DNA of 64,000 nucleotides from a virus (IMGVR_UViG_3300032304_002326:14588-78587); one strand, 5' to 3'; shown: positions 6,244 through 30,201, counted from the first letter of the stretch. The notes: a model not told the origin generated them from the sequence alone. Numbers and translations are program-made.

Positions 6244-6294
6244 ATGGGTAACTGGATTAAAAAACAAATGGTGAAATTACTTAAAAAGTTATAA
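6244..6294 (+). pseudogene. Orphaned original 5' end (MGNWIKKQM...) of gene 7082..8092
   Basis: 18 nt TGGATTAAAAAACAAATG identical at 6253-6270 and 7088-7105, on either side of the endonuclease gene. Confidence 0.8.
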
Positions 6295-6327
6295 CATTAT
6301 TATATATTTATAATAAAAAATAATAGT

Positions 6328-7095
6328 ATGATTGATAGTAAAGAAACTGGTGTTTATAAAATAACTAATTTAAATAATAATAAAGTTTATATTGGTAGTT
6401 CTACTTCTGAGCGAGATGGGTTTAAAGATAGAATAAATACCCACATTAGATTGTTAAATAATAAAAAACACCCAAATAAACATTTACAAAGTTCTTGGGA
6501 TAAATATAGTTATAAATCTTTTAAATTTGAAATTTTAGAAATAATTAAAGGTAAAGATAAAATAATTGAAAGAGAACAATATTATATTGACTTATATGGG
6601 GTGATTAACCCAAATATTGGTTATAATAAAGCACCAATAGCAAATAGTCAGTTAGGTTTTAAACATTCAGAAGAAAGTAAACGTAAAATGTCTAAAGCTG
6701 CTAAAAGTAGGTCTAAAGAAATTTCAGAAAGAATGAAAAAAATAATGACTGGTAAAAAAATGAGTGATGAAACAAAGGAAAAAATATCAAAAAAAATAAA
6801 AGGAATTAAAAGAAATTATGAGTTTAAAAATAAAATGAGTATTATTGCTAAAAATAGGGTAGTTAGTGATGATACTAAAAATAAAATCAGTAAAACAAAA
6901 ACGGGTAAAATATCTAAAAAAAGGAAAAAAGTTATACAATTAGATTTGTATGGTAATTTAATTAAAATATGGTCTTTTGCTGGTGAAGCTGAAAGTGAAT
7001 TAAATATAACTAGAGGTAAAATAAGTGCAGTTTGTTTAAATAATAGAAAAACAGCTGGTGGATTTAAATGGAAATATAAAAATGAAATGGATTAA
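6328..7095 (+). mobile_element. Free-standing GIY-YIG homing endonuclease with NUMOD3/NUMOD1 DNA-binding repeats
   Basis: 'GVYKITNLNNNKVYIGSS', 'REQYYID', 'HSEESKRKMS' repeats, 'KTAGGFKWKY'. Confidence 0.9.
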
Positions 7096-8092
7096 AAAAC
7101 AAATGTTAAATCTAACATTAGCTATAAGTAATGTTGAAAAAAATGCATTAAATCAGGAAGGTATAGATGGCGGTATTGAAACTGGGAAATACCAGAGATT
7201 GAACCAAAATTCATTGATGGATGCCCTACTTAGGGGGGAGATGAATGATGAGGTTGAAAAATTGCGTTGGAGAATATACAAAACTTCATCAGCTATTAAA
7301 AATTATGGAACCAAAGTGGTTGGTTATACAATTGACGGGCACCCAATAACTAAAATTACTTATGTTGGTGATGAAGAAAGGTTAGCTAAAATTAAAAAAG
7401 AACCTTCTGATGAATACGAATTAATAATGGTGGTTGATAATACCAACGTTAGTGCTAGTGTTTTCTCATCATTAAATTTAGATATTGATGAATACGATGA
7501 ACCTATCGACTCAAAAACAACAAACATAATTAATAAGGATGATGCACCAAAAGGTTTCACTATAGATGTAGATGATGAGATTAATAATGGTAGTAATATT
7601 GAGTTAGGTGATGATGAAATAAAAACTATTGGGGAAGTTAAAGATAATAAAGTTGAATTAAATCTACCAATAAGTATAACTAGGGAACACAGGCCAAAAT
7701 TTGAATTAGAAAATTACACCAAAAAACTACATGTTAAGGAAATAAATGATAAAGAATTTTTATTAGAGTTTTTCATTTCAAAATACCCAAATCAGTTTGA
7801 TAAAAAAAGTGATTTTTTCTTATCGGATATTAAAAAATTGATATCACAACCAAAAAGATATAACTCAATTATCGATATAAATACAGTATCATTCGTTACC
7901 AATAATACAGTTGGTGTTCCAGACTTTTTAGAATTTGAATACAATGTTAAAAAATTTGACAAAATTGTTGAGTTCAATGAATTTTACGTTGTTAAATTTA
8001 TTTCAGAAGTAACTATTGAAGCTAAAAGTATTATTGATAAGTTCAGAAATGAAGAACTTGACGAAAAATATAAAAACAAAGAAAAAAGATAA
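7082..8092 (+). CDS. Hypothetical phage protein (start MKWIKKQM supplied by the inserted element)
   Basis: Long ORF; ATG 7082 overlaps the endonuclease 3' end. Confidence 0.7.
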   Translation: MKWIKKQMLNLTLAISNVEKNALNQEGIDGGIETGKYQRLNQNSLMDALLRGEMNDEVEKLRWRIYKTSSAIKNYGTKVVGYTIDGHPITKITYVGDEERLAKIKKEPSDEYELIMVVDNTNVSASVFSSLNLDIDEYDEPIDSKTTNIINKDDAPKGFTIDVDDEINNGSNIELGDDEIKTIGEVKDNKVELNLPISITREHRPKFELENYTKKLHVKEINDKEFLLEFFISKYPNQFDKKSDFFLSDIKKLISQPKRYNSIIDINTVSFVTNNTVGVPDFLEFEYNVKKFDKIVEFNEFYVVKFISEVTIEAKSIIDKFRNEELDEKYKNKEKR

Positions 8093-8097
8093 AATAT

Positions 8098-8937
8098 ATG
8101 GGGAGGCCGAGAAAAGTAACTGGTGAAACTTCAGTGCCACAAACTAGAAGTGTAAAACAACCACTAACTAAAGAGCAGTTGTTGCAAAATATTAGATTAT
8201 CAATTAAGTGTAAAAATGAGACTCAAAAAAAATTAATACACACAATAAAAAATAATGATGTTACAATATGTACTGGTCCAGCTGGTACTGGTAAAACGTT
8301 TTTATCTTGTTATGAATCTATTAATCAACTTAAAAATAATAATTTAATTAATAAAATCGTGATAGTTAAATCAGTTACAACATTAAAAAATGAAGAAATA
8401 GGATTTTTAAAAGGTTCATTAGAAGAAAAAATGGAACCATTTGTATATTCATTTATTAAAAATTTTGAAAAAATAATTGGATTAGACTTAACTAATAAAT
8501 TAAAGGATGAAAATATTATTGAAGTGTTACCAATTGCATACATGAGAGGTATAAATATTGATAATGCTGTGGTTATAATAGACGAAGTTCAAAACATATC
8601 AATAGATAATATTAGAACTATATTAACTAGGTTAGGAGAAAATAGTAAAATGATATTATTAGGTGATATTAACCAAATAGATATGAAATATAAAAAAGAC
8701 AGTGCTCTAGAATTTTTAATTAATAATTTTAAAAACACTTCAAATATTGGACTTATTGAATTCAATAATAGTGAAATTATAAGACACCCATTAATTATAA
8801 AAATAGAAGAAATATTTAATAATTACGATAAATCAAATACTCAAAATAAAGTTAAAGTTATCAATAATAAACCAGTTATAATTAGAAAAAAAATTAGCTT
8901 ATTAAAGTTATTATTTAATAAAATATTCGGTAGATAA
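8098..8937 (+). CDS. phoH: PhoH-family ATPase
   Basis: 'GPAGTGKT', 'EIGFLKGSLEEKMEP', 'AYMRG', 'IIDEVQN', 'LTRLGENSK..LGD..QID', 'IRHPL'. Confidence 0.92.
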   Translation: MGRPRKVTGETSVPQTRSVKQPLTKEQLLQNIRLSIKCKNETQKKLIHTIKNNDVTICTGPAGTGKTFLSCYESINQLKNNNLINKIVIVKSVTTLKNEEIGFLKGSLEEKMEPFVYSFIKNFEKIIGLDLTNKLKDENIIEVLPIAYMRGINIDNAVVIIDEVQNISIDNIRTILTRLGENSKMILLGDINQIDMKYKKDSALEFLINNFKNTSNIGLIEFNNSEIIRHPLIIKIEEIFNNYDKSNTQNKVKVINNKPVIIRKKISLLKLLFNKIFGR

Positions 8938-9744
8938 ATTTAATAAACCTAATCTATATAATTTTTGATAGGTAGGGTTATCATTTTCCCTAAATTCTTT
9001 TTTATTTTTATATTTTGATGCTATTTTATATAAGTCTTCAATAGAAATTATATTAGAATATATATCACCAATAATGATATTATTAATATCATCCTTATTT
9101 ATTTGTTTTTTTAAAAATTTATTTATAACTGGTAAATTATTAATAATTTGTTCTTTTATATCCAACTCATATTTACGACTATGTTCATTAATAATAATTA
9201 GCAATATATTTTTTTTAAAACATAAATCACACTTAAATGAATTATCATTATGTTGGTGCCAACCCTTACCATTATATTCAAAAGCTATTTTTAAGTCATC
9301 AACATAAATATCTAACTCATATGGTTTAATTATTTTCCTTGTATTGTATAAAACATCAGATTTAAATAATTTAACAATTATATCTTTTAAAATTAATTGT
9401 GGTATACTAAATGATTTTGAAATCATATGTGAACATATGTCATTCAATATACCTTTTCTTTGTGCTGAAGAATAAGCTGAAGCATCATATTTTTTAAATT
9501 CAGACCTAGAGTTATATTTTTTAGCAATTTCTGCTAAATTATCATAAGATAAATCACGACCAACTAATTTATTTCGCTTACCAATTAAATATGATTTAAA
9601 CTCCTTACTTTTTTTCAAACCTAATCTATTAGCTTTTGATTCAAGTGATTTTTTAGATACATTTAAAATGTTACTTATTTCTAAATTTTCAGTATTTGGG
9701 TATAATTTAATAAGTTCATTAGTTAATTTTATAGACCAACTCAT
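8911..9744 (-). CDS. Putative free-standing PD-(D/E)xK/Vsr-like endonuclease
   Basis: 'YELDIYVDDLKIAFEYNGKGWH' nuclease motif; 'AKKYNSRSEF'/'ASKYKNKKEF' repeats; antisense to neighbours with own ATATTTAT. Confidence 0.65.
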   Translation of the reverse strand: MSWSIKLTNELIKLYPNTENLEISNILNVSKKSLESKANRLGLKKSKEFKSYLIGKRNKLVGRDLSYDNLAEIAKKYNSRSEFKKYDASAYSSAQRKGILNDICSHMISKSFSIPQLILKDIIVKLFKSDVLYNTRKIIKPYELDIYVDDLKIAFEYNGKGWHQHNDNSFKCDLCFKKNILLIIINEHSRKYELDIKEQIINNLPVINKFLKKQINKDDINNIIIGDIYSNIISIEDLYKIASKYKNKKEFRENDNPTYQKLYRLGLLNLSTEYFIK

Positions 9745-9850
9745 ATATTCTTTAAATATAAATATCCAATATACTCAAAAAAGGTAAAAATATTTTTATT
9801 TAAACTTTATTTATTTATTTATTTTATTATCATTAAATAAAAATAAATAG

Positions 9851-10462
9851 ATGGCACGCATAGGTATTAGTATTAACGAAGTTTTAAGGGATACGTTATC
9901 CCAAATGGATTATACTTACAGTAAGTATATATCAGGTGAGGAATCTAAAATTACAAAAGATGAAATTACATCATTTAATTTAGAAGACCATTTTACGTTC
10001 CAATCGAAAAAAGATTTAAACAGATTCTTATATGATGAGGCTAGTTTAGAAATCTTTGGACATGCGGACCAAATGATTGAAAATTTAATGACTAAATTTA
10101 ATATGTTCTTAGTCGACATTGAGGAAGAAGAAGAGCATACAATCGAATTAGTTAGTAGAGAATACTTAAAAAGTATTCCATCAACATTATTCTTCCTATC
10201 AAAATTAGGTTGTAGAGCAGCAAATATTAGATTTGTTAAACAATATGATGAAGAATGGGGTGATGTTGATGTATTAATTACAGCAAACCCAATATCACTA
10301 AAAAACAAACCAAGCGATAAGATTTCGGTAAAAATAAATGCACCTTACAACAGTGATTGTCAAGGTGATTTTGAATTGGATTCAATTTTAGATTTTATCG
10401 AAGATGAAGCTTTAAGAACTAAAATTTTAAACACAAAAATAACAACACAAGAACAATTATAA
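9851..10462 (+). CDS. HAD-fold 5'(3')-nucleotidase-like protein, degenerate motif I
   Basis: 'RIGISINEVLRD' in place of DxD motif; 'DVLIT', 'INAPYN'. Confidence 0.45.
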   Translation: MARIGISINEVLRDTLSQMDYTYSKYISGEESKITKDEITSFNLEDHFTFQSKKDLNRFLYDEASLEIFGHADQMIENLMTKFNMFLVDIEEEEEHTIELVSREYLKSIPSTLFFLSKLGCRAANIRFVKQYDEEWGDVDVLITANPISLKNKPSDKISVKINAPYNSDCQGDFELDSILDFIEDEALRTKILNTKITTQEQL

Positions 10463-11994: not shown

Positions 11995-12042
11995 ATGAAT
12001 AATATAACAGTAATTATACCAAGATTTTTAGTTAGTGAATAG
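11995..12042 (+). pseudogene. Orphaned original 5' end (MNNITVIIP...) of GT2 gene 12932..13723
   Basis: GTAATTATACCA identical at 12010-12021 and 12956-12967; ITVIIP vs ISVIIP. Confidence 0.75.
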
Positions 12043-12080: not shown

Positions 12081-12923
12081 ATGATAATATATAAAACAAC
12101 AAATTTAATTAATGGTAAAATTTATATAGGTAAAGATGTTAAAAATAACCCAAATTATTATGGTTCTGGTAAAATATTAAAACAAGCTATAAAAAAATAT
12201 GGTAAAGAAAATTTTAAAAAAGAAATATTACTTGAGTGTTTTAATAAAAAAGAATTAGAATTGGAGGAAATTAAACACATAACCAAATATTCATCAAATA
12301 ACCCTAAAATCGGATATAATGTAACTAATGGTGGGTCTGGTGGTGTAACAAAAAGAATAAAAATATACCAGTATAATAAAAATGGTGAATTTATAAAAGA
12401 ATGGGAGAGTAGTGAAGTTGCATCTAGAGAATTAAATATTGATTCAAGTGCTATTAGAAAAGTTTGTAAAGGTATTTTAAAAAGTTGTGGTGGATTTATT
12501 TGGTTAGAATATAAAAAAAATAATGTAATCTATAAAACAAATAAAGAAAAAAATATATTACAATATGATATGTGTGGTAATTTCATAAAAGAATGGGTAT
12601 CAATTAAAGATGCTGAAAATTATTTAAAAATAAAACCATATAGTGGTAATATTGGTTCAGTTTTAGATAAACCAAATAGGTCATCACATGGTTATATTTG
12701 GTTAACAAAATGTGATAAAATAAAAAATAAAATAAAACAATATGAACATAACTTATCAAGAAAGGTGAACCAATTAAATGATACGCATGATATTATTAAA
12801 ACCTGGGAATCAATTACTGATATATGTAAAAATTTAAAAATAAAACAAAGTACATTAATAAAATACCTTAAATTAGATAAAAAATTAGGTGGTTATTATT
12901 GGGAATATAATAATAAAAAATAA
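12081..12923 (+). mobile_element. Free-standing GIY-YIG homing endonuclease with three NUMOD1-like repeats
   Basis: 'IIYKTTNLINGKIYIGK...YYGSG..LK.AIKKYGKENFKKEIL'; 'QY..NG.FIKEW.S' repeats. Confidence 0.9.
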
Positions 12924-12931
12924 TAAATAAA

Positions 12932-13723
12932 ATGAAAAAAAGAAATTTAATAAGTGTAATTATACCATTACACGAAGTACAAGAAGGAACCAATGGATTA
13001 TATAAAAATGCAATTCAAAGTGTTATTGACCAAGTTGTAAAACCATCAAATGTGTTAGTTGTAACACCAATAGGTAGTGAAGCAACTAAATTTGCAAATG
13101 ACTTTGATTATGGTACTATAAAAGATTTAGTTAAAGTGATTGAAAATGATGGTAAAACGGATTTTGCATCACAAATTAATTATGGTGTTTCAAAATGTGA
13201 AACAACGTGGTTTAGTATTTTAGAATTTGATGATGAATATTCTAAAATTTGGTTTAAAAATGTGGAAACATATATTGAAGCTTATTCAGATGTTGATATT
13301 TTTATGCCTATCATAGTTGACGTTGATGAATTTGGTTCATTTATAGGGTTTACAAATGAAGCAGTTTGGGCCAATAGTTTTTCAGAAGAACTAGGTCTTT
13401 TAGATAAAGATGCATTACTTTCTTACCAAAACTTTAATATCGATGGTATTGTAATGAAAAAAGATATCTATGAATCATACGGTGGGTTTAAATCAAACAT
13501 GCAGTTAACATTTATTTATGAATTCTTATTAAGAATGACATATAAATCTGCTAAAGTTATGACAATCCCTAAATTTGGTTATAAACACGTAAACCAAAGA
13601 GTTGGTTCATTATTCCATAGTTATAAATTAAATATGAATCCAGTTGAAGCGAACTGGTGGTTAAATAAAGCTAAATCTGAGTTCTACCATGAGCATGACA
13701 GAGAATTGAGCTATGCTGAATAA
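12932..13723 (+). CDS. Glycosyltransferase family 2
   Basis: 'ISVIIPLH', 'INYGV', 'WFSILEFDD'. Confidence 0.75.
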   Translation: MKKRNLISVIIPLHEVQEGTNGLYKNAIQSVIDQVVKPSNVLVVTPIGSEATKFANDFDYGTIKDLVKVIENDGKTDFASQINYGVSKCETTWFSILEFDDEYSKIWFKNVETYIEAYSDVDIFMPIIVDVDEFGSFIGFTNEAVWANSFSEELGLLDKDALLSYQNFNIDGIVMKKDIYESYGGFKSNMQLTFIYEFLLRMTYKSAKVMTIPKFGYKHVNQRVGSLFHSYKLNMNPVEANWWLNKAKSEFYHEHDRELSYAE

Positions 13724-13733
13724 AATTTAAATA

Positions 13734-14483
13734 ATGGGCACACAACGAGGACGAAAAAGAACAAATGATTTATATTTCGGTCCAGACGAAGAGGCTGCTG
13801 TTATTAGATTTTTAGAATGTAATGATGATATAGAAAGGAATGCAATCTACAATGAATGGTTAAGAGGACCATTTGATAAAATGATTGAATCGATAATCAG
13901 AAGGTATAAATTATATAGAAAAGGGTTTTCGTTTGAGGATTTACACTCAGACACCCTATCCTTCTTGATAACAAAAGCAGATAAATTTGAAAAAGATTCT
14001 GGCAAGAAAGCATATTCTTACTATGGAACAATTTGTAAACACTACATACTTGGGTTACTAATCAAAGATGATAGTAATGTAAAACAACTATATTCGTATG
14101 AAGATTTAAGTCAAGATTATTTTGACGATAGAGATGATTTACAATATGAGATTGATGATAAAGATTTTACTTTAGATAAATTTATAGTTAAATTAACGAG
14201 TGGTATTAAACTTGAAATTGATAACAATGAAACGTTACCAATTAAAAAAAGATTGAATGATAATGAAATAAAGGTTGGTTACGCACTTATCGATATTTTA
14301 GAAAATTGGGAACAAACACTAGATGTAATGAATGGTGGGTCAAAATTCAATAAAAATTCAGTTTTGGAAACCATGCGAAATTACACCAATTTATCAACAA
14401 AAGACATAAGGTCGTCAATGAAAAGGTATAAAGATATATATTCTATATTAAAAATAGATGGGTTAGATAACGGATTTGAATAA
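13734..14483 (+). CDS. gp55-like late-transcription sigma factor
   Basis: 'FEDLHSDTLSFLITKADKFEKDSGKKAYSYYGTICKHYI' resembles sigma region 2.2-2.4 as in T4 gp55; no recognisable region 4. Confidence 0.6.
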   Translation: MGTQRGRKRTNDLYFGPDEEAAVIRFLECNDDIERNAIYNEWLRGPFDKMIESIIRRYKLYRKGFSFEDLHSDTLSFLITKADKFEKDSGKKAYSYYGTICKHYILGLLIKDDSNVKQLYSYEDLSQDYFDDRDDLQYEIDDKDFTLDKFIVKLTSGIKLEIDNNETLPIKKRLNDNEIKVGYALIDILENWEQTLDVMNGGSKFNKNSVLETMRNYTNLSTKDIRSSMKRYKDIYSILKIDGLDNGFE

Positions 14484-14537
14484 AAATCCGTTTTTTACGT
14501 ATTTATAGTATATAACAATAACTAAAATAATTCATGT

Positions 14538-19991: not shown

Positions 19992-20015
19992 TGGGGATTA
20001 TTAATCCCCATTTTT
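19992..20015. terminator. Intrinsic terminator hairpin between convergent genes
   Basis: TGGGGATTA-T-TAATCCCCA followed by T run. Confidence 0.7.
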
Positions 20016-20037: not shown

Positions 20038-22449
20038 TTATCTACTTACCTCTTCCCAATCTATTGAAGCATATGCTCCTAAATTTCCACCAGTTGCATC
20101 TACAGCCATTTCAATTACTATTTCAAAAGCTGTCCCCGTAAAACTATTTCTTTCAAGTTGACTAGCAAATAATGCTTCTTTTAATATATTAATACTAGGA
20201 GAACCTTGATTAGATGAATTTATATACCCTTGTGCTAATATTCTACCTCCTGAAACAGAAGCTCCCGTAAGATTATATTCAACAGATGAATCAACTCCAG
20301 CAGAAACCCACGCACCTCCTGTGATAATAGCCCCATTTACAACTCTCCATGCATAGTTTTTACCATTACCTATCCCTAATAAAGATACTGCTGTAGTTAT
20401 AATTATAGCATCTAATGCAGTAGCCTTAACCCTAATCCCCACCATTGGATAATACGTTCCAGCTACAGCAAATGTTTTAGGTGTTGTGATAGGTGTCCCA
20501 ACCGCTAGTTGAGCACCCCTAAGTTCATAACCACCTTCAGATAATGCAGTAGAACACACTTGCTTTAAAGTACTTGGTATAGCTGTTACCCCTGTATTAG
20601 TAATCTCATACCTCAAAGGTAAAGATGCTGTGGTAATATAAGTAGATGTTATTAAATTAGCGTGATTAAATCTATGACAAAGAATAAAATTACCGTCTAT
20701 AACAAAACCTAATCTAACGGTCCCTTCTCCTAACCACTCAATATCCATAAATAATATCTGAGCTTTTGTAATATCTAATACTAAACCAGAAGGCCCAGTA
20801 CCATCCATTTTATCAACATTCCACGCCGATTGATTTACTACAGATTCAGTAACTACACCAGTAACCAAACTTCTTTCTACAAAACTTAAAGTAGAGTTGT
20901 TAAGTTGTAAGTAAAGCCCATTATCACTACCAAAGTAACCTACTCTTTGTCTAAGATTAGTTTGAGCTGGAGCCATTACAAATGTATTATATATTAGTAA
21001 TGACTTACCTGGTTGGTATGATATTACTTTAAATGTTTCTCTAAGAACTTGTGAGCCACTTGTTGTATTTACATTTAAATTTACCAATCCTTCATTTGCA
21101 CTAAATACTGCTGCACCCCCACTTGCTGTAGAAGTAGCCCATAACCCATTGTCTTTATATCTATGTGAAGAATCAAATAAAGTTAATGGATTTGAAACCC
21201 TTAATCTACCAAATGCATCACCCAACATTGGATTATTAGTTAATATTGATTGATTAGATACAGTAACAGTACCATCTACAGTAATTGAATTACCACCATC
21301 TTGTATATTTACAGCAGCTGCACCAGCACCATTCTGAACTGTTATACTTTCTAATGCAGATAATGTTGCAGCATCTAATGCGACTGTACTATTAGTGACA
21401 TCAACTTTATCCGTTGCAAATACTAAATTTCTAATATCTAAATCAGTAGCATCAACTGTGATTGAATTACCACCATCTTGAATATTAACAGCTGAAGCTC
21501 CAGAAGTATTTCCAATAGTTGCATTTAAATTAGACGCTGTAGGTTGAATAATTGTGAAATTACCAGTACCAGCATTTGCAGTAACAGTACCATCTACAGT
21601 AATTGAATTACCACCATCTTGAATATTAACAGCTGATGAACCAGCACCATTCTGAACCGTTATATTTTCTAATGCAGTAAGTGTTGTAGCATCTAAAGCA
21701 ATAGTACTATTGCTAACGTCAACCTTATCTGTTGCAAATACTAAATCTCTAATATCTAAATTATTAGCATCTACAGTTATACTATTACCACCATCTTGAA
21801 TATTAACAGCTGAAGCACCAGCACCATTCTGAACCGTTATATTTTCTAATGCAGTAAGTGTTGCAGTACTTAAACTTACCGTACCATCCACAGTAATCGA
21901 ACCACCAGCGTCATCTATTGAAATAACATTACCACCATCTTGAATATTAACAGCGGAACCACCACCAGTATTATTAATCGTAACATCACCAATATCAGTA
22001 CCATTAACTAATTTATTATTAATATTAGTTAATATTGTTTGAGTATTGGTTACAGCAGTTAGTACTAATTTTTGAGTATCTTCTAAATTTATATCAGTTG
22101 TATTTGAAACTATTAAACTTAAAAAAGTATTTGGATTGATATATGATAACGGTGGTGTGGGTATTGATGGTGTGTTAGAATTTGGTAAATAATAAGTAGG
22201 TGGGTTAAATGCACCAGTTGAACTATTCCATACTCTAACCTCTAAATAAGTAACATCTAAATTATCAACAACCAATTTAGTTTCATAATCACTTTGTTGC
22301 TGAACTGCTGACAATATTGATAAAGAAGTTAACTCAGTTGCTAAATAAGCACCATTTGAATTTACCGAAATAATTTGGTCACTAGGTAAAACAACTGGGT
22401 CACTTTCAGCCATCGTTTTTTGACCTTTTGTATTTGGAAATTGATTCAT
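20038..22449 (-). CDS. Repeat-containing fibre/decoration-like structural protein with C-terminal globular domain
   Basis: Five 'AVNIQDGGN' repeats; 'DAFGRLRVSNPLTLFDS' begins a beta-rich C-terminal domain. Confidence 0.6.
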   Translation of the reverse strand: MNQFPNTKGQKTMAESDPVVLPSDQIISVNSNGAYLATELTSLSILSAVQQQSDYETKLVVDNLDVTYLEVRVWNSSTGAFNPPTYYLPNSNTPSIPTPPLSYINPNTFLSLIVSNTTDINLEDTQKLVLTAVTNTQTILTNINNKLVNGTDIGDVTINNTGGGSAVNIQDGGNVISIDDAGGSITVDGTVSLSTATLTALENITVQNGAGASAVNIQDGGNSITVDANNLDIRDLVFATDKVDVSNSTIALDATTLTALENITVQNGAGSSAVNIQDGGNSITVDGTVTANAGTGNFTIIQPTASNLNATIGNTSGASAVNIQDGGNSITVDATDLDIRNLVFATDKVDVTNSTVALDAATLSALESITVQNGAGAAAVNIQDGGNSITVDGTVTVSNQSILTNNPMLGDAFGRLRVSNPLTLFDSSHRYKDNGLWATSTASGGAAVFSANEGLVNLNVNTTSGSQVLRETFKVISYQPGKSLLIYNTFVMAPAQTNLRQRVGYFGSDNGLYLQLNNSTLSFVERSLVTGVVTESVVNQSAWNVDKMDGTGPSGLVLDITKAQILFMDIEWLGEGTVRLGFVIDGNFILCHRFNHANLITSTYITTASLPLRYEITNTGVTAIPSTLKQVCSTALSEGGYELRGAQLAVGTPITTPKTFAVAGTYYPMVGIRVKATALDAIIITTAVSLLGIGNGKNYAWRVVNGAIITGGAWVSAGVDSSVEYNLTGASVSGGRILAQGYINSSNQGSPSINILKEALFASQLERNSFTGTAFEIVIEMAVDATGGNLGAYASIDWEEVSR

Positions 22450-22517: not shown

Positions 22518-22548
22518 TTTAAATACATCTTTACAAATTTATATTTTT
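22518..22548 (+). repeat. 31-bp direct repeat, copy 2
   Basis: Identical to 19946-19976. Confidence 0.9.
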
Positions 22549-22563
22549 AATTATATTTATTAT

Positions 22564-22635
22564 TATAGTTAACTCCGTATTGGTTTCGAGTCAAATTTGA
22601 CTTTAGAGTTGTTTAGGCAACAAAGAAATTGGTAC
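22564..22635 (+). promoter_or_regulatory. Putative structured 5' leader RNA (three-way junction) of gene 22666
   Basis: 22577-22587 pairs with 22625-22635 (WC+GU), enclosing hairpins 22588-22603 and 22608-22621; ATATTTAT at 22553-22560. Confidence 0.4.
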
Positions 22636-22665: not shown

Positions 22666-23478
22666 ATGAAAATTAGTTTAAACAATGAGGTTTCTACACC
22701 TCAAGCATTTATTGCTGTTAATAAAAGTAGAATTAAACAATATGATAAGTCTGGTGACACACCAACTTACTACCTACAAAAAGGTCAAGAATTCCAATTA
22801 GAATTATTTAATCCAACCAATGGAACCATTTTAGCTAAGATTTTCTTAAATGGAAATGCTATATCACAAGGTGGACTCGTTTTAAGACCAGGAGAGCGCA
22901 TTTTTCTAGATAGATATATCGATGTAGCCAAAAAGTTTTTATTCGACACCTACGAGGTTGAAAATACGTCTGAGGTTAAAAAAGCTATTGAAGACAATGG
23001 TGATTTTAAAGTTGAATTTTACAGAGAGTTCGTATTTAATAACTATGGTGGTTATTTAAACTTAAATAATAATACCACAGTAACCACATATAATACAAAT
23101 TTAACTAATTATAGTGATGTAAATACATATGATATTAGATGTAATTCTTTAAATGATTTTAATTCATCATTTACAAACACATCAATTAATCAAAATACAA
23201 CACCAGAAGGTCCAAACCGAAGACAATTAAAATCAAAAAAAACAAAATCAATTGAAACTGGTAGAGTTGAACAAGGTTCATCATCTAATCAAAAATTACA
23301 AACAGTAAATAAGAATTGGGAATACTCCCCATTTCATACTATTGAATATAAAATGTTACCATTATCACAAAAGATAAACACAATTGAAGATATTAATATA
23401 AAAAGATATTGCACCAATTGTGGTTCCAAATTAAAAGTAGAGTTTAAATATTGTCCATTATGTGCAACTAAAATTTAA
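22666..23478 (+). CDS. Hypothetical phage protein with C-terminal double CxxC zinc ribbon
   Basis: 'CTNCG...CPLCA'. Confidence 0.75.
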   Translation: MKISLNNEVSTPQAFIAVNKSRIKQYDKSGDTPTYYLQKGQEFQLELFNPTNGTILAKIFLNGNAISQGGLVLRPGERIFLDRYIDVAKKFLFDTYEVENTSEVKKAIEDNGDFKVEFYREFVFNNYGGYLNLNNNTTVTTYNTNLTNYSDVNTYDIRCNSLNDFNSSFTNTSINQNTTPEGPNRRQLKSKKTKSIETGRVEQGSSSNQKLQTVNKNWEYSPFHTIEYKMLPLSQKINTIEDINIKRYCTNCGSKLKVEFKYCPLCATKI

Positions 23479-24548
23479 TTTAAAAATTGGTTCCATGATT
23501 CCCAACCATTATATTTATAAACATAATCTGGTCTTTTAGGAATATATGATGGTAGATTTTTAGTTAACGTTCTCCAAATAGATTCCGATTTAATATCACA
23601 ATTTTTATTAACCCATTCCTTACTATCTTTATAAGATAAAAAATGGGTTATTTTTTTCTTCCCAATATATTTAATATTTTTTGGTAAATCATTACCAAAA
23701 AAATCATTATATGAAATCCATTCATTTTTATAAACATTAATTGGGTTTCTAGGTAAACCTAAATTTTTATTTTCTAAATACCAATTTGTGTATTCTGATT
23801 TAGTTGTTAATTTTAAATCTTTAATTATTAATTTAGCTTCAGAATAATTTATTAATTTAATTTTATTTTTTTTTATTATTAATTTTTTTTTATTAATTTT
23901 TGGTTTAGTATTTAAAAAAGAATACCAAGATTCCCAACCTTTACCTTTATAATATTGAGCTGGATTATATGGCATTTTATTTTTTCTAAAAATACGATAT
24001 TCTTCTATATTTTTAATTTTCTCTTTAATAACTATTTCTTTTAATTCATTGTAACTTAAAAAACTATTATTATTAAAAAAATCAGTCCAGTTCTTCCAAT
24101 CTCTATTTTTATATACTGAATCTGGTCTTTTAGGAAAACATTCGGGTAATTCACCTAATTTTATCCATTTACGCCATTTTTTTTCTGAATTAATGTTAGG
24201 TATATTATTTAACACCCATTCTTTCATTTCTACTAATGTTGATTCATATTTAGAATAACTACTACCTTCACCACCTTTACTTAAATTAGTTAAATTAGGT
24301 ATTTGCCCTATCCAATATTTTTCTCGTTCTACCCAATTATCTTCATTACATTCTTCTATAATATGTATTTTTAATTCTTCATTATTATTTAAAACTTTAC
24401 GAATCCAATTATTCTTATGTGTTATTATACCTCGTTTAGCTTCACAAATGTGGTCATTTTTCCTAATTATTGGTCTATATGATTTACCAATATATCTTAT
24501 TATATTATCATACCCTGATAATCCATAAATATAAATTTTATCACTCAT
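23475..24548 (-). mobile_element. Free-standing GIY-YIG homing endonuclease with 'P-x-x-P-x-x-x-Y-K-x-x-x-W-x-x-W' repeats
   Basis: 'IYIYGL...IRYIGKS', 'REKYWI', 'NLSKGGEG'; four C-terminal repeats; start at MSDKIY. Confidence 0.85.
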
Positions 24549-24605: not shown

Positions 24606-24665
24606 TGTGGTTCTAAATTAGGTAAGGGTGATAAATTTTGTGCTAACTGCGGCACAAAAGCTTAA
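24606..24665 (+). pseudogene. Orphaned original 3' end of gene 22666 (CGSKLGKGDKFCANCGTKA*)
   Basis: Same length and register as current end CGSKLKVEFKYCPLCATKI* (23419-23478); followed by terminator. Confidence 0.85.
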
Positions 24666-24692
24666 ATAAAAATAACTGAGTTAACTATATAA

Positions 24693-24716
24693 GGGGAGTT
24701 TTTACTCCCTTTTTTA
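24693..24716 (+). terminator. Intrinsic terminator
   Basis: GGGAGT-TTTT-ACTCCC followed by T run. Confidence 0.75.
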
Positions 24717-24790: not shown

Positions 24791-24964
24791 ATGGAAAATA
24801 CTAACATGTTATCTAGCAATAGTGCTATTGCTTCTGAAGTAATCAAATTGGAAAAGAAATATCCTAATAATATGGATTTAGGTTTTGCAATTAGAAAATT
24901 GTTACTTGAAAATCGTGAAAAATACGATTTATTATTAAAAAGTATTGAAAACAAAAAAGGCTAG
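24791..24964 (+). CDS. Small hypothetical protein (57 aa, MENTNMLSSNSAIASEVIKLEKKYPNNMDLGFAIRK...), not in ORF track
   Basis: Open frame directly downstream of the promoter. Confidence 0.6.
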   Translation: MENTNMLSSNSAIASEVIKLEKKYPNNMDLGFAIRKLLLENREKYDLLLKSIENKKG

Positions 24965-25068
24965 ATAAACTCTAGCCTTTTATATGAATTAGATTTTTAT
25001 TATCTTAATTCGTTAATGTTAAATGTTGGAACACCATCAACTTTTACGTGACCGTAGAATCTGTTGTT
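24948..25068 (-). repeat. Displaced copy of major capsid gene 3' end (NNRFYGHVKVDGVPTFNINELR*), 3' UTR and terminator
   Basis: Direct repeat of 25872-25993; identical peptide, 12 synonymous codon differences. Confidence 0.92.
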
Positions 25069-25079: not shown

Positions 25080-25853
25080 TTATAATAATTTATACATAAA
25101 AATATCATCTTCATCATCTGTTGTTCTATATTTAGAAAAACCATACTTACTGTAAATTTGATAAAGTATATCTGAGTCTATTTCCGAATCATCATCAACC
25201 CTCAAAAATAATGATTTATATCCTTTATTTTTGCCGAAATCATATAACCAATTCATAGTTTCTGTCATATAATTTTTACCTCTAAATTCTGGCAAAATTT
25301 TAATGTCAACAATAGCTAAAGGATTTGGTAAATTAACATCAATCCAATAATATTCTTTCCTCGCTGGCGATAATATTATATAACCCACTTTTTCACCATT
25401 AACAATAATATCATTATATTCATCAGTTGATGGGTTTTCTATATTTATTGATTCATTTAATGAATCAGAACCAGTTCCTTTATATATTAATTCAATTGAA
25501 TTTGGTGGGATATTTTCAAAAGTGATTATTCGTTTATCTTCTAAATCAAAATTAGGGTCAATATACCATTTGTTTTTAAGTTTGGTCGTATCTATTTTGT
25601 ATATATCATCATCATAGGTTGAATCCCACCAATCTTTTTTATTATCACTATTAACCGCAAATATGACTTTACCTTCAATAGGTGTATTAGATAACCAAGT
25701 TTCACTCTTTCCCTTTGGAATTAAACCTTCTTTTGATATGACATCCCTAAAATACGAATTTGATGTATGATACACATACTTATTTGGGATTATTTCTTTT
25801 AATTTACGATTATTTAACGATTCTCTCAGTAACTTTTGTATTAATGTTTTCAT
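25080..25853 (-). CDS. Two-domain protein: ADP-ribosyltransferase/Tpt1-like fold plus GNAT acetyltransferase, with 'IQKLLRE' leader
   Basis: 'VYHTS...ISKEGLIP...ENIPP' ART-like; 'ILPEFRGKNY...YSKYGF' GNAT; internal 'SLNES'. Confidence 0.55.
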   Translation of the reverse strand: MKTLIQKLLRESLNNRKLKEIIPNKYVYHTSNSYFRDVISKEGLIPKGKSETWLSNTPIEGKVIFAVNSDNKKDWWDSTYDDDIYKIDTTKLKNKWYIDPNFDLEDKRIITFENIPPNSIELIYKGTGSDSLNESINIENPSTDEYNDIIVNGEKVGYIILSPARKEYYWIDVNLPNPLAIVDIKILPEFRGKNYMTETMNWLYDFGKNKGYKSLFLRVDDDSEIDSDILYQIYSKYGFSKYRTTDDEDDIFMYKLL

Positions 25854-25879
25854 ACCTATAAATATCTATATAAAACAAA

Positions 25880-25906
25880 AAAGGCTAGATTAACTTCTAG
25901 CCTTTT
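25880..25906 (-). terminator. Terminator of major capsid gene (duplicated near 24957-24980)
   Basis: AAGGCTAGA/TCTAGCCTT stem followed by T run on minus strand. Confidence 0.75.
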
Positions 25907-25924
25907 ATATGAATTAGATTTTTA

Positions 25925-27712
25925 TTATCTTAATTCGTTGATATTGAATGTAGGTACACCGTCCACTTTTACATGACCATAGAACCTATTATTCACAACT
26001 TTCTTCGCATATCTAGTCATGATACCTTTAACTGGTGCGAAGTTGAATGGATTGTACATTGTAGGTGTAAGTTGCATTGGCACGTATGGTGCGTAGATGT
26101 AACCTGTATCTAACAATGATTTTCCTTTATGACCGATAATCGCTGAGTAGAAAGGTGCATATGGGTCACGGTACACTTGGTAACGTCCGCTTAATGAACC
26201 GATTCTTTCAATACCCATGTTGTATTGGTCTTGCTCTGGGTTAGCATCACTTACGTGGAAGTATTCTAAATCATCCATGATTGCAGATATTTCAGAAGAT
26301 ACTACGATAAAGTTAGCACCACCTCTAAGAGTTGATTTGTGAATTTGAGCTGAAATTTGGTTAATTCTAGTAATGAAAGTTTGATTCCACTCTTTTTGTG
26401 TATATGGTGATGCAGCAGAAGAAGCTTTTCTCCATCCGTTGTAATCCCATCTTAATTGCCATGCAGCAGCTTTTCTTAAGTCTCTTAAGATTTCACGGTC
26501 AATTTCAGCAGCAACTTGCTCAGAAAGCATTGCAGTTAATTCAGCTTCAGCATCGATGTTGTGGAATGCACTAACGTCTTGCGCTAACTCTGGAGACCAT
26601 GTAGCTCTTAATTTTCTTTCTTCTACAGAAACAACAACTTCATCCAATTTGAATGATACTTCACCCATTTCAGTTTCTAACTCTAATGAATCGTAACGAC
26701 CCCAAGCGATAAAGAAATCAGCAGCAGTTTCAGTTGTACCAGTAGTACCAATATAACCATCATAAGTTGATGTAGTACCAACTACTGGGTGTGTTAAATC
26801 CATTTCAACATAAAGAAAACCTTTAGCATCACAGATATCTTTATAATCTACGATACCTCTACCATATTTTTGAGTTACTAATCTAAAAGGAACTTGAGAA
26901 CCTTGAGCGATAATTACATTACCATCTGAGTCTAATAAATCTACGTTAGAAACAATGTTTAAAGATGCTAAGAAAGCTTCTGAATCCATTTCATTTCCGT
27001 CTGGACCTGTTAATCTACCAGCATTAACTGAAGAGAAACCAGAGATAGCCATAATAGCGTTTCTTAAAGTTCCGTCAGTTGCTAATGGTAAAGCACCAAA
27101 GTTAGCAGCAACAGTAAATTGACCATTAGTACCTAATGTTTGTAAAGCACCAAAACCAGCAACGATATTTAATGTACCTTTAGAATTATCAAATAATCCG
27201 TCATTGTAGAAAATATCATATAAGTTTTTACCTTCAAATGGAGTCATAACACAGTTACCTAATGTACTAACACATGATGGTAATTGGTCACCCATTGAAG
27301 TGTGTGCAGAATATACAGAGTTTTCACTACCGTAAATATAATCGTTAGTTCCAGGATTTCCTAAACCGTCAACTCTAGATGATGTAACTGGTACGAAGAA
27401 GAACAATTTACCGATTGGCATGTTCATAGCTTGTACAGATACTACATCATTAGCTAATAATTTAGAGAATACTCTTCTTACGATTGGGAAAACTACAGTT
27501 TCAAAAGAACCTGATGACGTAGAGTCAGTAGCTTCTGTTAAAATTGAAGATGCTTGGTTTTCATATAACTGAGCAACGTTTTCTTTAACGTGGCCTTTAA
27601 GACCTTCTAAGAATCCTAATGATTCCCATTTTGATTGGGTTTGTCTACGGATTTCCTTCATGTGGTTTAATCCGATGTTCCCAACTTGTCCTGAATTTAA
27701 AAATTGTGACAT
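25925..27712 (-). CDS. Major capsid protein, T4 gp23-like
   Basis: 'VQAMNMPIGKLF', 'RKLRATWSPELAQD', 'DAEAELT.MLSE..AEIDREI', 'GANFIV.S', 'YAPYVP', 'GIMTRY'. Confidence 0.95.
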   Translation of the reverse strand: MSQFLNSGQVGNIGLNHMKEIRRQTQSKWESLGFLEGLKGHVKENVAQLYENQASSILTEATDSTSSGSFETVVFPIVRRVFSKLLANDVVSVQAMNMPIGKLFFFVPVTSSRVDGLGNPGTNDYIYGSENSVYSAHTSMGDQLPSCVSTLGNCVMTPFEGKNLYDIFYNDGLFDNSKGTLNIVAGFGALQTLGTNGQFTVAANFGALPLATDGTLRNAIMAISGFSSVNAGRLTGPDGNEMDSEAFLASLNIVSNVDLLDSDGNVIIAQGSQVPFRLVTQKYGRGIVDYKDICDAKGFLYVEMDLTHPVVGTTSTYDGYIGTTGTTETAADFFIAWGRYDSLELETEMGEVSFKLDEVVVSVEERKLRATWSPELAQDVSAFHNIDAEAELTAMLSEQVAAEIDREILRDLRKAAAWQLRWDYNGWRKASSAASPYTQKEWNQTFITRINQISAQIHKSTLRGGANFIVVSSEISAIMDDLEYFHVSDANPEQDQYNMGIERIGSLSGRYQVYRDPYAPFYSAIIGHKGKSLLDTGYIYAPYVPMQLTPTMYNPFNFAPVKGIMTRYAKKVVNNRFYGHVKVDGVPTFNINELR

Positions 27713-29130: not shown

Positions 29131-29181
29131 TTTTTAATGTTTTTTAAAATATTATTAAAGGGAAATACCCCTTACTTGTTT

Positions 29182-29189
29182 ATAAATAT
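29182..29189 (-). promoter_or_regulatory. Putative late promoter ATATTTAT (example before scaffold/capsid; about 20 copies before genes)
   Basis: Also + 6304, 12061, 18196, 22553, 45420, 48079, 54862, 62526 and - 9758, 22463, 24561, 25858, 30217, 32255, 36426, 41695, 48793, 51961, 54305, 62514. Confidence 0.6.
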
Positions 29190-29237
29190 GTTTATTTTAT
29201 CAAAAAGCTAAATTTTTAAAAAAAAATTGTTTTTTAA

Positions 29238-29939
29238 TTAATCTAATAAAAATTTATCTAAACCATCGATTAATGTATTTTTTTTATTTTCTACTGATTC
29301 AACAAATGGTCTAGCTTCCATTTTATCTTTAAACATCCATGAACCAGGTGTGCTAGGTGCGGTTACAACATCCCAACAAATAATTTCAAAATCCTCTTGA
29401 ACTATGTGGTCATCACCAACTTCCCTTAATGAACCAACACCTCTAGATGATACACCAATCATAATATTATTTCTTAAAAGATTGGCAACTTCATCACCTT
29501 TAGTTGATACAATTCCATAATTAATATATCCTGGAGTCATTAATATTTCCATTTTACCCATTAATGTTTTACCTTCCCACCAAGTTTCAATTATATTGTG
29601 TGATACTCTATCACCAGCAATAATTGAAGACTCTGGGTGGTCTAATTCACCAATAGCTCTTCTTTCTCTAATTAATTCTTGATATCTATCAACTTCTCTT
29701 TTTAAAATAGATTCTGGGTATATTCTACCATTTCTATTTTTTACACCATATTTCTGTAAGACTACATAAACCACTAATGGTTCGTGAACTGATGGATGTA
29801 TACCAGATTCTAATTTTTTCATCTCAGTTACGAATGGTTTATTTCTTTTATCATCTGGTGAAATATAACCAGCATCAGATTCAATCATAATCATTCTTTC
29901 ACCAGTAATATTGGTTTTATTTATCTTGTAATCACTCAT
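29238..29939 (-). CDS. Prohead protease, T4 gp21-like
   Basis: 'KNRNGRIYP', 'GELDHP', 'VSH', 'GVSSRGVGSL', 'WDVVTAPSTPGS'. Confidence 0.93.
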   Translation of the reverse strand: MSDYKINKTNITGERMIMIESDAGYISPDDKRNKPFVTEMKKLESGIHPSVHEPLVVYVVLQKYGVKNRNGRIYPESILKREVDRYQELIRERRAIGELDHPESSIIAGDRVSHNIIETWWEGKTLMGKMEILMTPGYINYGIVSTKGDEVANLLRNNIMIGVSSRGVGSLREVGDDHIVQEDFEIICWDVVTAPSTPGSWMFKDKMEARPFVESVENKKNTLIDGLDKFLLD

Positions 29940-29940
29940 A

Positions 29941-30201
29941 TCAATTAATTTTTACCCATTTATAATTATAGTATGTCCTATTTTCTTTGTTACAAACATT
30001 AGATATACTACTTTGTTTTATTTTTAAAGTATTACTGTATTTAGATTTTCTAATATGTTCTTTAAACCTTACATCAATATTATTTGATTTACCAATATAT
30101 CTAACTAAATTGGTTAATGGGTCAACTAACATATAAATGTAAACTACATTTAATTTATTTTCCACACTTTGACCAGCCTTTAATATTTTAATATCTGACA
30201 T
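29941..30201 (-). pseudogene. Internally deleted GIY-YIG endonuclease remnant fused to probable old protease start
   Basis: 'VYIYML...VRYIGKS' joined to NUMOD1-like 'SSISNVC...YKW' in only 86 aa; N-terminus MSDIKILK resembles protease MSDYKINK. Confidence 0.6.

Follow-up and report, generated by a model that had tools for sequence, protein, structure and literature searches.

How can a conserved phage gene take in a foreign gene close to its start or stop and remain whole without splicing? The question arises in the window considered here, the whole stretch of 64,000 nt that was analysed from the virus IMGVR_UViG_3300032304_002326:14588-78587, in which six sites of insertion lie within positions 6,244-30,201. 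The host genome is that of a freshwater T4-like giant phage.

Architecture of the six sites

Sequence reading and repeat comparison within the window identified a duplicated gene end or promoter at all six places listed in an earlier note on this DNA, and repeats, orphans (the stranded copies of gene ends) and empty alleles bore out its pattern. Coding ends are duplicated at five of the six, three of them 5' ends (336-aa gene, site 1; glycosyltransferase, site 2; gp21 protease, site 6) and two of them 3' ends (zinc-ribbon gene, site 4; gp23 capsid gene, site 5). Site 3 is not a coding end; here a duplicated promoter flanks an acquired virion-protein gene. The proposal that inserts land at a gene terminus or promoter was upheld for the five coding ends, and the promoter duplication fits homing less well. 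The count of four GIY-YIG inserts (sites 1, 2, 4 and 6) and two of non-nuclease cargo (sites 3 and 5) was retained after Pfam, PHROG, BLASTP and fold matching. The features are as follows.

Site 1, 6244-6294 (+): orphan 5' end, a 16-codon ORF that opens with the resident start (10 codons) of the 336-aa gene
Site 1, 6328-7095 (+): GIY1, GIY-YIG and NUMOD3 homing endonuclease gene (Pfam PF01541, E 1.2e-11; PF07460)
Site 1, 7082-7285 (+): substitute 5' end and co-converted tract, from alignment; whole gene 7082-8092
Site 2, 11995-12042 (+): orphan 5' end of the family-2 glycosyltransferase gene, matching the empty-allele start in L015
Site 2, 12081-12923 (+): GIY2, GIY-YIG (SegE-like) and NUMOD1 homing endonuclease gene (Pfam PF07453, E 1.7e-13; PF19835, 25.8 bits)
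Site 2, 12932-13120 (+): substitute start (12932-12967) and co-conversion gradient; whole gene 12932-13723
Site 3, 19946-20012 (+): stranded promoter copy (TTTACA, 18-nt spacer, TATAAT), then hairpin terminator
Site 3, 20038-22449 (-): cargo, gene for an 803-aa virion structural protein (PHROG 1645, E 1e-131)
Site 3, 22518-22569 (+): promoter copy in use, upstream of the zinc-ribbon gene
Site 4, 23419-23478 (+): zinc-ribbon gene (22666-23478 in full), substitute 3' end
Site 4, 23475-24548 (-): GIY-YIG endonuclease gene in antisense, 357 aa; its C-terminal part has repeated DNA-binding-like modules
Site 4, 24606-24712 (+): orphan 3' end of the zinc-ribbon gene, 3' UTR and terminator
Site 5, 24953-25068 (-): orphan, last 22 gp23 codons (25000-25068), 3' UTR and terminator (24955-24981)
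Site 5, 25080-25853 (-): cargo, 257-aa gene with C-terminal GNAT acetyltransferase domain (Pfam PF00583, E 5.8e-7; PHROGs)
Site 5, 25877-25993 (-): end in use, last 22 gp23 codons recoded (25925-25993), and second terminator copy
Site 6, 29886-29939 (-): 18-codon substitute 5' end of gp21, the prohead protease gene (29238-29939 in full)
Site 6, 29941-30201 (-): decayed GIY-YIG remnant, 86 aa (Pfam PF01541, 27.3 bits, first half of the domain only)

All coding-end inserts interrupt a conserved gene within 10-22 codons of its start or stop. At sites 1, 2, 4 and 6 an endonuclease ORF lies between two copies of the gene end, of which the inner one continues the reading frame of the gene body; site 5 has the same in-frame layout, but with cargo in place of the nuclease. 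Across the breakpoint neither copy keeps the full original sequence, the orphan lacking the gene-body side and the end in use being altered on the terminus side. Breakpoints fall at VIIP in the glycosyltransferase, WIKKQM in the 336-aa gene, the first Cys pair of the zinc ribbon and NNRFYGH in gp23. Read from sequence alone, the orphan frames stop after 15-16 codons at sites 1 and 2 and lie beyond a stop at sites 4 and 5, while the site 6 orphan start would be read into the nuclease remnant, which is preceded by the resident gp21 upstream region, read as driving it.

The GIY-YIG catalytic domain was recognised by profile in GIY1, GIY2 and the remnant, and by fold and BLASTP in the 357-aa protein, which has no Pfam match; its N-terminal 106 aa match GIY-YIG folds (TM 0.86) and it is related to the site 6 remnant by BLASTP (E 6e-5). 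The PF19835 score of GIY2 exceeds a cut-off of 25, and its PHROG homing endonuclease match has an E of 3e-24. A modular DNA-binding region follows the catalytic domain in GIY1 (NUMOD3), GIY2 (NUMOD1) and the 357-aa gene (three internal repeats, families D5 and D10), and is absent from the 86-aa remnant. For none of these proteins is the enzyme activity or the cut site known. Five inserts carry their own ATATTTAT, as had been stated, and the sixth relies on the copy of the motif that belongs to resident gp21. This motif is start-proximal across the genome (24 of 98 genes) and is not a cassette signature.

Filled and empty alleles

Empty alleles of five sites (2, 3, 4, 5 and 6) were found in close relatives from other metagenomes. 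Those of sites 2, 4, 5 and 6 join the orphan end directly to the gene body, and site 3 is represented by a single-promoter empty allele; the absence of such alleles had been named beforehand as grounds for refutation. At the same four coding sites presence/absence polymorphism was met at one homologous position, these sites being also filled in distant lineages, and more than 10 of the lineages compared are empty.

The neighbouring proteins of L015 are 97-100% identical to those of the window, and its empty allele of site 2 begins with a sequence 100% identical to the orphan, of which 11995-12021 is resident and the remainder belongs to the cassette. Orphan and real start (12932-12967) have only a 12-mer in common, and it is exactly at this 12-nt repeat that the orphan is joined to the glycosyltransferase body in L015. 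Past the junction, identity to L015 is 84-87% in the first 90 nt, then 91-93% and then 98-100%. A GIY2 homologue occupies the same site in the distant lineage L012, with its own frameshifted orphan, which resembles the starts of L013 and L019 and breaks after the same motif as that of the window.

For site 1 the comparisons gave no empty allele of near-identical sequence, and GIY1 has no close relative in IMG/VR. The first 10 residues of the orphan are identical to the natural N-terminus of the homologues P0010 and P0031, an exact 18-mer is common to the orphan (6253-6270) and the real gene start (7088-7105), and the GIY1 stop falls within the substitute start region. By alignment, the first ~68 codons of the 336-aa gene and 8 codons upstream are 100% identical to P0022; beyond them the gene is about 65% identical to P0022 (73% over the whole length) and about 90% to P0004. 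This mosaic and the decay of identity at site 2 are of a kind typical of homing co-conversion, as judged from the alignments. On the body side of sites 4 and 6 no co-conversion tract was detected in the identity comparisons with relatives.

At site 6, listed only as probable in the earlier note, the first 12 codons of the remnant (30166-30201) are the orphan gp21 start and the natural gp21 start of L003, a relative that is empty at this site and lacks the remnant. The gp21 gene of the window begins with 18 substituted codons, and the start in use is unlike the N-terminus common to all eight relatives, which the orphan matches. L003 is also empty at site 4, where the 357-aa gene is absent and the zinc-ribbon end is that of the orphan; orphan and natural end with its terminator are nearly identical (hairpin -12.2 kcal/mol). 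The zinc-ribbon gene departs from L003 exactly at 23419-23478, after 135 nt of 96-98% identity, and its two 3' ends (23419-23478 and 24606-24665) match with 27 bits. Homologues of the 357-aa gene occupy the same site in L012 and L013, and in both the zinc-ribbon orphan breaks off ahead of the TGTGG that marks the break in the window.

The repeat at site 5 is 132 nt long, with 87% identity, and consists of the last 22 gp23 codons, 3' UTR and terminator; the whole 3' UTR and terminator are identical in both copies and in L003. The gp23 of L003 has 95.6% aa identity, the GNAT gene is absent from it and its gp23 end is that of the window's orphan, with 3 of 69 nt differing. By comparison, the count of differences for the end in use is 12 of 69 nt against L003 and again 12 of 69 nt against the orphan, all of the latter synonymous, and sliding identity along gp23 drops only there. 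In L083 and L085 the zinc-ribbon and gp23 genes are convergent, 88 nt apart. The gp23 orphan of L012 begins at the same codon, beside an Endo VII/HNH-type nuclease gene and another ORF. The N-terminal domain of the 257-aa protein has a homologue in L013 (BLASTP). This cargo is described here as ART-like/GNAT.

Site 3 contains a 31-nt exact repeat (39 nt at 95%) at 19946 and 22518, with only these two copies in 64 kb when up to 3 mismatches were allowed and none in shuffles. The promoter match is 11/12 at 19958-19987 and the hairpin at 19990-20012 has -12.5 kcal/mol; promoter-like matches as such are not enriched in the A+T-rich DNA of the window. The copy in use runs on into a leader common to the empty alleles L082, L083 and L085, which have a single promoter. 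With 35% G+C against 25-28% in its flanks, the 803-aa gene was not found in any relative examined, and structural proteins of cyanophages and Puniceispirillum phage share 63% identity with the C-terminal half of its protein.

Sequence comparison shows that the resident end survives in the orphan and that the copy in use is divergent and imported, the stranded end being closer than the inserted end to the ends of close relatives. The filled and empty alleles, the architecture, the co-converted tracts and the recurrence at the same breakpoint in distant lineages are likewise shown.

Origin of the sites

We regard the sites as terminus-replacing homing cassettes, with a probability of roughly 0.78; cleavage, the homing unit and self-immunity are inferred. 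In this reading a free-standing endonuclease gene has entered a conserved gene at a conserved motif that lies 10-22 codons from the start or stop, and the cassette has a substitute of the displaced end beside the endonuclease gene. At 5' sites the substitute is the start codon and first codons, abutting or overlapping the endonuclease stop, and at 3' sites the last codons and stop. Since a substitute end is supplied, the target gene is whole without splicing, and the resident end is stranded on the far side of the insert as the orphan. During co-infection the endonucleases may cleave empty alleles close to or at the breakpoints, with repair from the cassette-bearing genome and with gene body and orphan region as the two putative homology arms, and splitting of the target might confer self-immunity as an intron does. 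The intron-less homing or acquisition strategy suggested earlier is to this extent supported by controls and empty alleles; that it is a strategy, the cleavage and the role as homology arms stay inference. There is no nuclease at sites 3 and 5 in this genome and that of site 6 is a truncated remnant, therefore at least half of the sites cannot be active now. Sites 1 and 6 are not simple insertions, because the orphan is shorter than the replaced tract.

The least credible alternative, chance similarity in A+T-rich DNA or an artefact of metagenome assembly, can point to the short words shared at sites 1 and 2 (18 and 12 nt), to DNA of 27% G+C and to a contig that is a metagenome assembly. Against this, Markov simulations gave 0.02-0.18 expected exact direct repeats of at least 18 nt within 4 kb per genome, and a scan of gene termini in this genome and 24 syntenic loci gave seven same-strand matches of at least 26 bits within 4 kb, none with reversed peptides and none on the opposite strand. 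Terminal duplications, which the earlier note would have had to see no commoner than in controls to be refuted, are far commoner. Exact empty alleles occur in independent contigs, and the same layout in contigs from other samples; controls and independent contigs thus gave nothing in support of chance or artefact. It is also quite improbable that old insertions were inherited vertically and lost precisely from most relatives by recombination between the gene-end copies. Direct repeats permit a precise deletion restoring the intact gene, and the window and L012 have cassettes at shared sites, but the orphans are near-identical to the ends in use of close cassette-free relatives (100% at site 2, the 3 differing nt at site 5), the ends in use are the divergent ones, the empty lineages are many, and the P0022-identical stretch at site 1, on a body so much less like P0022, shows lateral transfer.

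Two further explanations keep more weight. One, which we consider unlikely, is that incoming DNA with a copy of the resident promoter, terminator or gene end integrated by homology without a nuclease, for example through a circular intermediate and single crossover, as proposed for PeSL mini-circles, leaving direct repeats. For T4-type phages both PeSL-mediated shuffling and mini-circles are on record (PMC2839356), the repeated element of site 3, a sigma-70-like promoter by a hairpin terminator, comes without a nuclease, and the site 5 repeat extends through the entire 3' UTR and terminator. This site 3 duplication is better explained by promoter/terminator-cassette recombination than by homing, and entry of the 803-aa gene at such a cassette is the more likely event. 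Elsewhere this account is opposed by endonuclease genes in four of the six inserts, by coding-end breakpoints at conserved motifs that recur in other lineages next to nucleases, by the mere 12-15 nt of homology available at sites 2 and 4, and by a promoter element with two copies in the window, unlike the dispersed PeSLs. The other, somewhat more plausible though still the minority view, makes the orphans a by-product of one-sided homing between diverged phages, with no later role and no transmissible unit: the gene-body side would be repaired by homology and the other sealed by microhomology or end joining, the donor flank being too different. Consistent with this, the orphans of sites 1 and 6 (10-12 codons) leave some resident codons lost, the window and L012 have unlike cassette-side junctions at sites 4 and 5, and a common cut site alone would account for shared breakpoints. 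Clean replacement without an orphan also occurs:

8300-9860 (no strand): replacement tract of the PhoH 3' two-thirds, an endonuclease-like gene and the next gene's first codons

Here identity to L015 is 96-100% to about 8300, then about 55-65%, resuming just past the start codon at 9851. The gene at 8911-9744 (-) has PHROG homing/HNH endonuclease matches, and the tract is counted as co-conversion of flanking donor sequence. Opposed to a by-product is the cassette side next to the site 2 orphan, alike in the window and L012 where the flanking genes are only about 57-62% identical; this is the only site with junction sides clearly alike between lineages, and separate scars left at a shared cut site remain possible. 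Moreover, the orphan is kept in every filled allele seen (site 2, window and L012; site 4, window, L012 and L013), and the nuclease 3' end overlaps the substitute start both in the window and at the locus L028, which suggests a fixed unit. Under the cassette reading, the cargo at the gp23 breakpoint most likely rides in terminus-replacing cassettes or remained after nuclease loss.

Known systems and other loci

Other splice-free rescues in phages are Aeh1 nrdA with mobE (genes in pieces), T4 mobA with the gene 60 bypass, and fractured genes with split inteins. In these, as here, an endonuclease gene lies inside a conserved gene whose function is kept without RNA splicing; they split the protein or bypass the insert, whereas here a single ORF is kept by end replacement. 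Splice-free replacement of gene ends by inserts was not found described for phages in the literature; splice-free gene-end invasion is known from fungal mitochondria, and their mobile endonuclease ORFs (mORFs) are the closest known system. These replace gene C-termini in Allomyces macrogynus atp6, Glomus atp6, atp9, cox2 and nad3, Rhizopus atp9 and Mortierella cox2 (PMC3630166). An endonuclease ORF (LAGLIDADG or GIY-YIG) comes with a foreign gene end in frame with the body, and the native end is left downstream, nearer to close relatives than the inserted end (PMC3630166), an asymmetry also seen here. The present sites differ in their phage host, in 5' ends replaced with a new start codon at three of the five coding sites, and in much shorter duplicated ends (10-22 codons). 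In addition, one nuclease runs antisense to the gene it targets, another is fused with the orphan start, and one site has cargo only.

The T4 Seg/Mob genes (SegF, SegG, SegB, MobE), free-standing and spread by intronless homing, resemble the present ones in that GIY-YIG genes adjoin conserved genes, are present or absent among relatives and co-convert flanking sequence from the donor (PMC2988022, PMC13565253). They are described as intergenic, with self and non-self set by substitutions in neighbouring genes, and stranded gene ends are not described; here insertion is within coding sequence and splits the target as an intron does. Site 3 resembles the PeSLs of T4-type phages in its sigma-70-like promoter and hairpin terminator on both sides of a new gene (PMC2839356), but only two copies occur in the window, the many dispersed copies were not met, and the other five sites duplicate coding ends.

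Whether terminus-replacing cassettes are a general, self-contained class of phage mobile element, with the orphan an obligatory homology arm and intron-like self-immunity, is a tentative proposal to which we give rather less than even odds. The first 50 kb of T4, with five free-standing endonuclease genes, contained no orphan above noise; with the orphan-free gene at 8911-9744, this makes the orphan not obligatory for free-standing homing. If the proposal is true, homing endonucleases would have a fourth route into a conserved coding target, next to introns, inteins and gene splitting; spread would be possible within a population, not only between diverged phages; and passenger genes could reach the termini of essential genes, the major capsid gene among them. 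Flanking orphan matches of at least 20 bits numbered six at 46 unrelated GIY-YIG loci, against none with reversed peptides, and in this partial survey three or four unrelated phage GIY-YIG loci had the same layout, among them L028 and L038, where in both cases the target is a RuvC-like gene and the break follows one shared motif.

Duplicated gene ends (and one duplicated promoter) at six sites

The sequence was read across every junction and the coordinates were verified at the six sites listed below, where the stranded gene end (or start) beyond an insert is termed the orphan and the substitute copy the end in use.

Site 1, 336-aa gene: orphan ORF at 6244-6294 and real start at 7082, with an exact 18-mer common to both; the insert is the nuclease gene GIY1 (6328-7095).
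Site 2, glycosyltransferase gene: orphan at 11995-12042 and real start at 12932, with a 12-mer in common that encodes a VIIP motif; the insert is the nuclease gene GIY2 (12081-12923).
Site 3, promoter by the zinc-ribbon gene: one copy at 19946 and one at 22518 of an exact 31-nt repeat (95% over 39 nt), around an 803-aa gene, minus strand.
Site 4, 3' end of the zinc-ribbon gene: one copy at 23419-23478 and another at 24606-24665, around a 357-aa gene, minus strand.
Site 5, 3' end of gp23: 132-nt repeat, 87% identity, on both sides of a GNAT gene.
Site 6, start of gp21: 86-aa GIY-YIG ORF (the remnant), the first 12 codons of which are those of a gp21 start.

Markov simulations of the genome gave 0.02-0.18 expected exact direct repeats of at least 18 nt within 4 kb, and the longest real direct repeats, leaving aside repeats internal to two proteins, belong to sites 5, 3 and 1. 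The site 3 element occurs in the window in two copies only, and no copy was found in shuffles. In a test of the kind that the earlier note had proposed, 28 residues from either terminus of every gene were compared with their surroundings in this genome and in 24 syntenic loci. On the same strand and within 4 kb, 7 matches of at least 26 bits were obtained, against none with reversed peptides and none on the opposite strand, so that terminal duplications clearly exceed the controls. A like scan of loci L073-L101, fetched via the 94-aa gene, was left out of account, being swamped by an N-terminal peptide common to neighbouring paralogues. A peptide of about 13 residues (M-K-x-x-I-x-x-L-L-R-E type) opens many neighbouring genes, both in these loci and in the window (19659, 25853, 54879, 62509); such similarity fills scans with false 'duplicated N-termini' and has to be masked.

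The source contig (IMG/VR virus record) is 78.6 kb long, and the window spans its bases 14588-78587. The window has a G+C content of 27% and encodes gp23, gp21 and PhoH of T4 type. Megablast against GenBank phages gave a sole match of 380 nt, to a cyanophage, so there is no close cultured relative, and even the nearest cultured ones are distant. Syntenic relatives were found in IMG/VR and JGI metagenomes, including complete genomes of 288 and 363 kb. The sequencing runs containing parts of the window are lake or freshwater metagenomes; the run list was not counted as evidence.

Resident and imported ends, by comparison with relatives

Around site 2, the proteins of locus L015 are 97-100% identical to those of the window, and no endonuclease lies between its 378-aa gene and its glycosyltransferase gene. 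The start of the L015 glycosyltransferase is exactly the window's orphan, and past the 12-nt repeat it continues as the window's gene body. In locus L003, where gp23 has 95.6% amino acid identity, there is no 357-aa gene, no GNAT gene and no GIY-YIG remnant. Its zinc-ribbon end and terminator are the window's site 4 orphan, and its gp23 end differs at 3 of 69 nt from the orphan as against 12 of 69 nt from the end in use. Within the window, the two gp23 ends differ from each other at 12 positions, all synonymous. The L003 gp21 start is the site 6 orphan, which in the window reads in frame into the remnant, while the first 18 codons of the window's own gp21 resemble none of eight relatives. The earlier note had proposed that each insert brings a substitute for the target end, and empty alleles joining orphan to gene body are indeed present at four sites (L015; L003). 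At all four sites the orphan is the resident end, whereas the copy in use has been imported.

In L083 and L085 the zinc-ribbon and gp23 genes are convergent and 88 nt apart, presumably the ancestral state, and in L082, L083 and L085 just one promoter separates the zinc-ribbon gene from the 94-aa gene. L003, the closest relative, has an additional minus-strand ORF (~930-1581) between the zinc-ribbon terminator and a 57-aa gene; it is missing from the window, which marks the convergent zinc-ribbon/gp23 junction as a hot spot of gene gain and loss. The 94-aa gene has a 93% identical homologue in L084 (5320-6249), in which the 11-residue leader peptide has given way to about 225 additional N-terminal residues.

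At site 1, a degenerate pattern search of IMG/VR for the predicted empty allele gave no match, and no near-identical empty allele was found. The first ten residues of the site 1 orphan are the natural N-terminus of the homologues P0010 and P0031 (66-84% identical). The window's 336-aa protein is a mosaic, in which about 68 first codons are 100% identical to the homologue P0022, an identity that extends 8 codons upstream into the 3' end of GIY1; beyond them identity to P0022 falls to about 65% (73% for the full-length protein), and from a conserved EVEKLRWRIYKT stretch onward the protein tracks the homologue P0004 at about 90%. The stretch identical to P0022 was thus co-converted from a P0022-like donor. 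At site 2, identity to L015 rises in a gradient (84-87%, 91-93%, 98-100%), and the junctions at sites 4 and 6 are sharp.

The same sites are occupied in distant relatives. In L012, the flanking proteins of which are about 57-62% identical to the window's, site 2 again holds a GIY2 homologue (56% identical). The L012 orphan there is its own, frameshifted and like the natural starts of L013 and L019; it breaks after the same motif as the window's orphan, and the adjoining cassette sequence is alike. Homologues of the 357-aa gene lie antisense and 3' of the zinc-ribbon gene in L012 and L013, and beyond them stands an orphan zinc-ribbon end (29-32 bits) that matches the natural ends of L009, L010 and L014, with the breakpoint just 5' of the same TGTGG. 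The L012 gp23 orphan shares its first codon with that of the window. Its protein is 100% identical to L012's own gp23 end, with 14 differences, all synonymous, in the 69-nt repeat (22 codons plus stop); between gp23 and this orphan lie a 183-aa ORF and an Endo VII/HNH-type gene. Conserved breakpoints with lineage-specific orphans argue for repeated and site-specific events. An Endo VII/HNH-type endonuclease gene (PHROG 1035, E 2e-14) directly downstream of gp23 was recorded in L012 (region 12658-13961) and in L013 (region 14174-14857).

The inserts and a promoter-like motif

GIY1 and GIY2 are GIY-YIG enzymes carrying NUMOD modules; no relatives of GIY1 above 39% identity were found in IMG/VR. 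A Pfam search of the 357-aa protein gave no match, but over its first 106 residues it resembles GIY-YIG folds (TM 0.86) and can be aligned to the remnant (E 6e-5). Its gene has three repeat units of about 77 nt (within 23478-24148), putatively DNA-binding modules. The remnant at site 6 retains only half a catalytic domain.

The cargo at site 3, the 803-aa gene, has a G+C content of 35% and encodes a virion protein that in its C-terminal half shares 63% identity with proteins of cyanophage and Puniceispirillum phage. The records of three relatives, two of them complete genomes, contained no match to it, and its reading as a translocated core gene was rejected on this ground. It has long internal DNA repeats (266-nt units, 85% identical, 21261-22021). 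In L013, the corresponding variable region encodes a homologue of the N-terminal domain of the site 5 GNAT protein.

Of 98 genes, 24 have the motif ATATTTAT no more than 60 nt before their start codon (mostly 12-17 nt), structural genes among them, although only about 1.6 such genes are expected; its total genome-wide count of 48 is close to the 43 expected from composition.

Examples of ATATTTAT in the window: 6304, 12061, 18196 and 34425.

Being start-proximal in a quarter of the genes, structural ones included, it is by its placement a general promoter-like motif, and probably the promoter of one temporal class. The earlier note was right that five inserts have their own copy; the remnant relies on the resident gp21 copy.

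Probable mechanism, known systems and generality

The best reading is homing via double-strand-break repair, in which the cassette would sit within the target sequence and bring a substitute gene end. Neither gene-end copy retains the complete original site: the orphan retains the terminus side, and the end in use retains the body side and is altered on the terminus side, at gp23 through synonymous recoding. Any later transfer could use the orphan region and the gene body as two homology arms. Cleavage and its positions, the role of the orphan and immunity are all inferred. In a rival reading, the orphans are merely passive scars, left where a shared cut site was repaired from one side; this is not excluded, because clearly homologous cassette-side junctions are present at site 2 only. 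Recombination at a PeSL-type promoter/terminator cassette is what site 3 fits, even though its element is not a dispersed one. Under the homing reading, site 5 may be a cassette after nuclease loss or one moved in trans.

In fungal mitochondrial mobile ORFs, a foreign C-terminus is inserted and the native one is stranded, the native end being like that of close relatives (PMC3630166); the phage pattern matches this, including the resemblance of the native end to close relatives. Free-standing phage endonucleases are described as lying between genes, with targets told apart by substitutions (2010 review of T4 mobile elements, PMC2988022; 2026 review, PMC13565253), whereas here many are actually inside a gene and supply a spare end. 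No description of stranded gene ends beside phage endonuclease genes was found, in a literature search that was incomplete and does not prove absence. New are the phage setting for terminus replacement, the exchange of 5' ends that supplies a new start, a nuclease antisense to its target, a nuclease fused to an orphan start, the synonymous recoding of a capsid gene end and cargo at the same breakpoints. The pattern provides a mechanistic link between phage and mitochondrial mobile ORFs. If general, it would make the breakpoints likely target sites of uncharacterised endonucleases, readable from sequence data, explain unusual N- or C-termini and short ORFs labelled 'hypothetical' beside endonuclease genes, allow gene-start annotation to be corrected and offer cargo a route to the ends of core genes.

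An orphan is present for 4 of the 6 endonuclease-like genes in the window. The one at 8911-9744 (minus strand) lies within a 1.56-kb tract (8300-9860) that is about 55-65% identical to L015, against 96-100% in the flanks, and that replaces PhoH over its 3' two-thirds as well as the opening codons of the following gene, without an orphan; orphans are thus frequent and not obligatory. In T4, no orphan above noise was found in the first 50 kb, the only part searched (segF, segA, mobA, mobB, mobC). Generality was surveyed in 46 loci, taken solely for encoding distant GIY1 relatives, and these gave six nuclease-flanking orphan matches of at least 20 bits, against none with reversed peptides. In two unrelated phage contigs, L028 (2734-4408) and L038 (2898-4317), a GIY-YIG gene separates the stranded start of a RuvC-like gene from its real one, the target being broken in both just after the conserved aspartate-containing N-terminal motif (catalytic-motif region). 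A further orphan case was found in L069 and L070.
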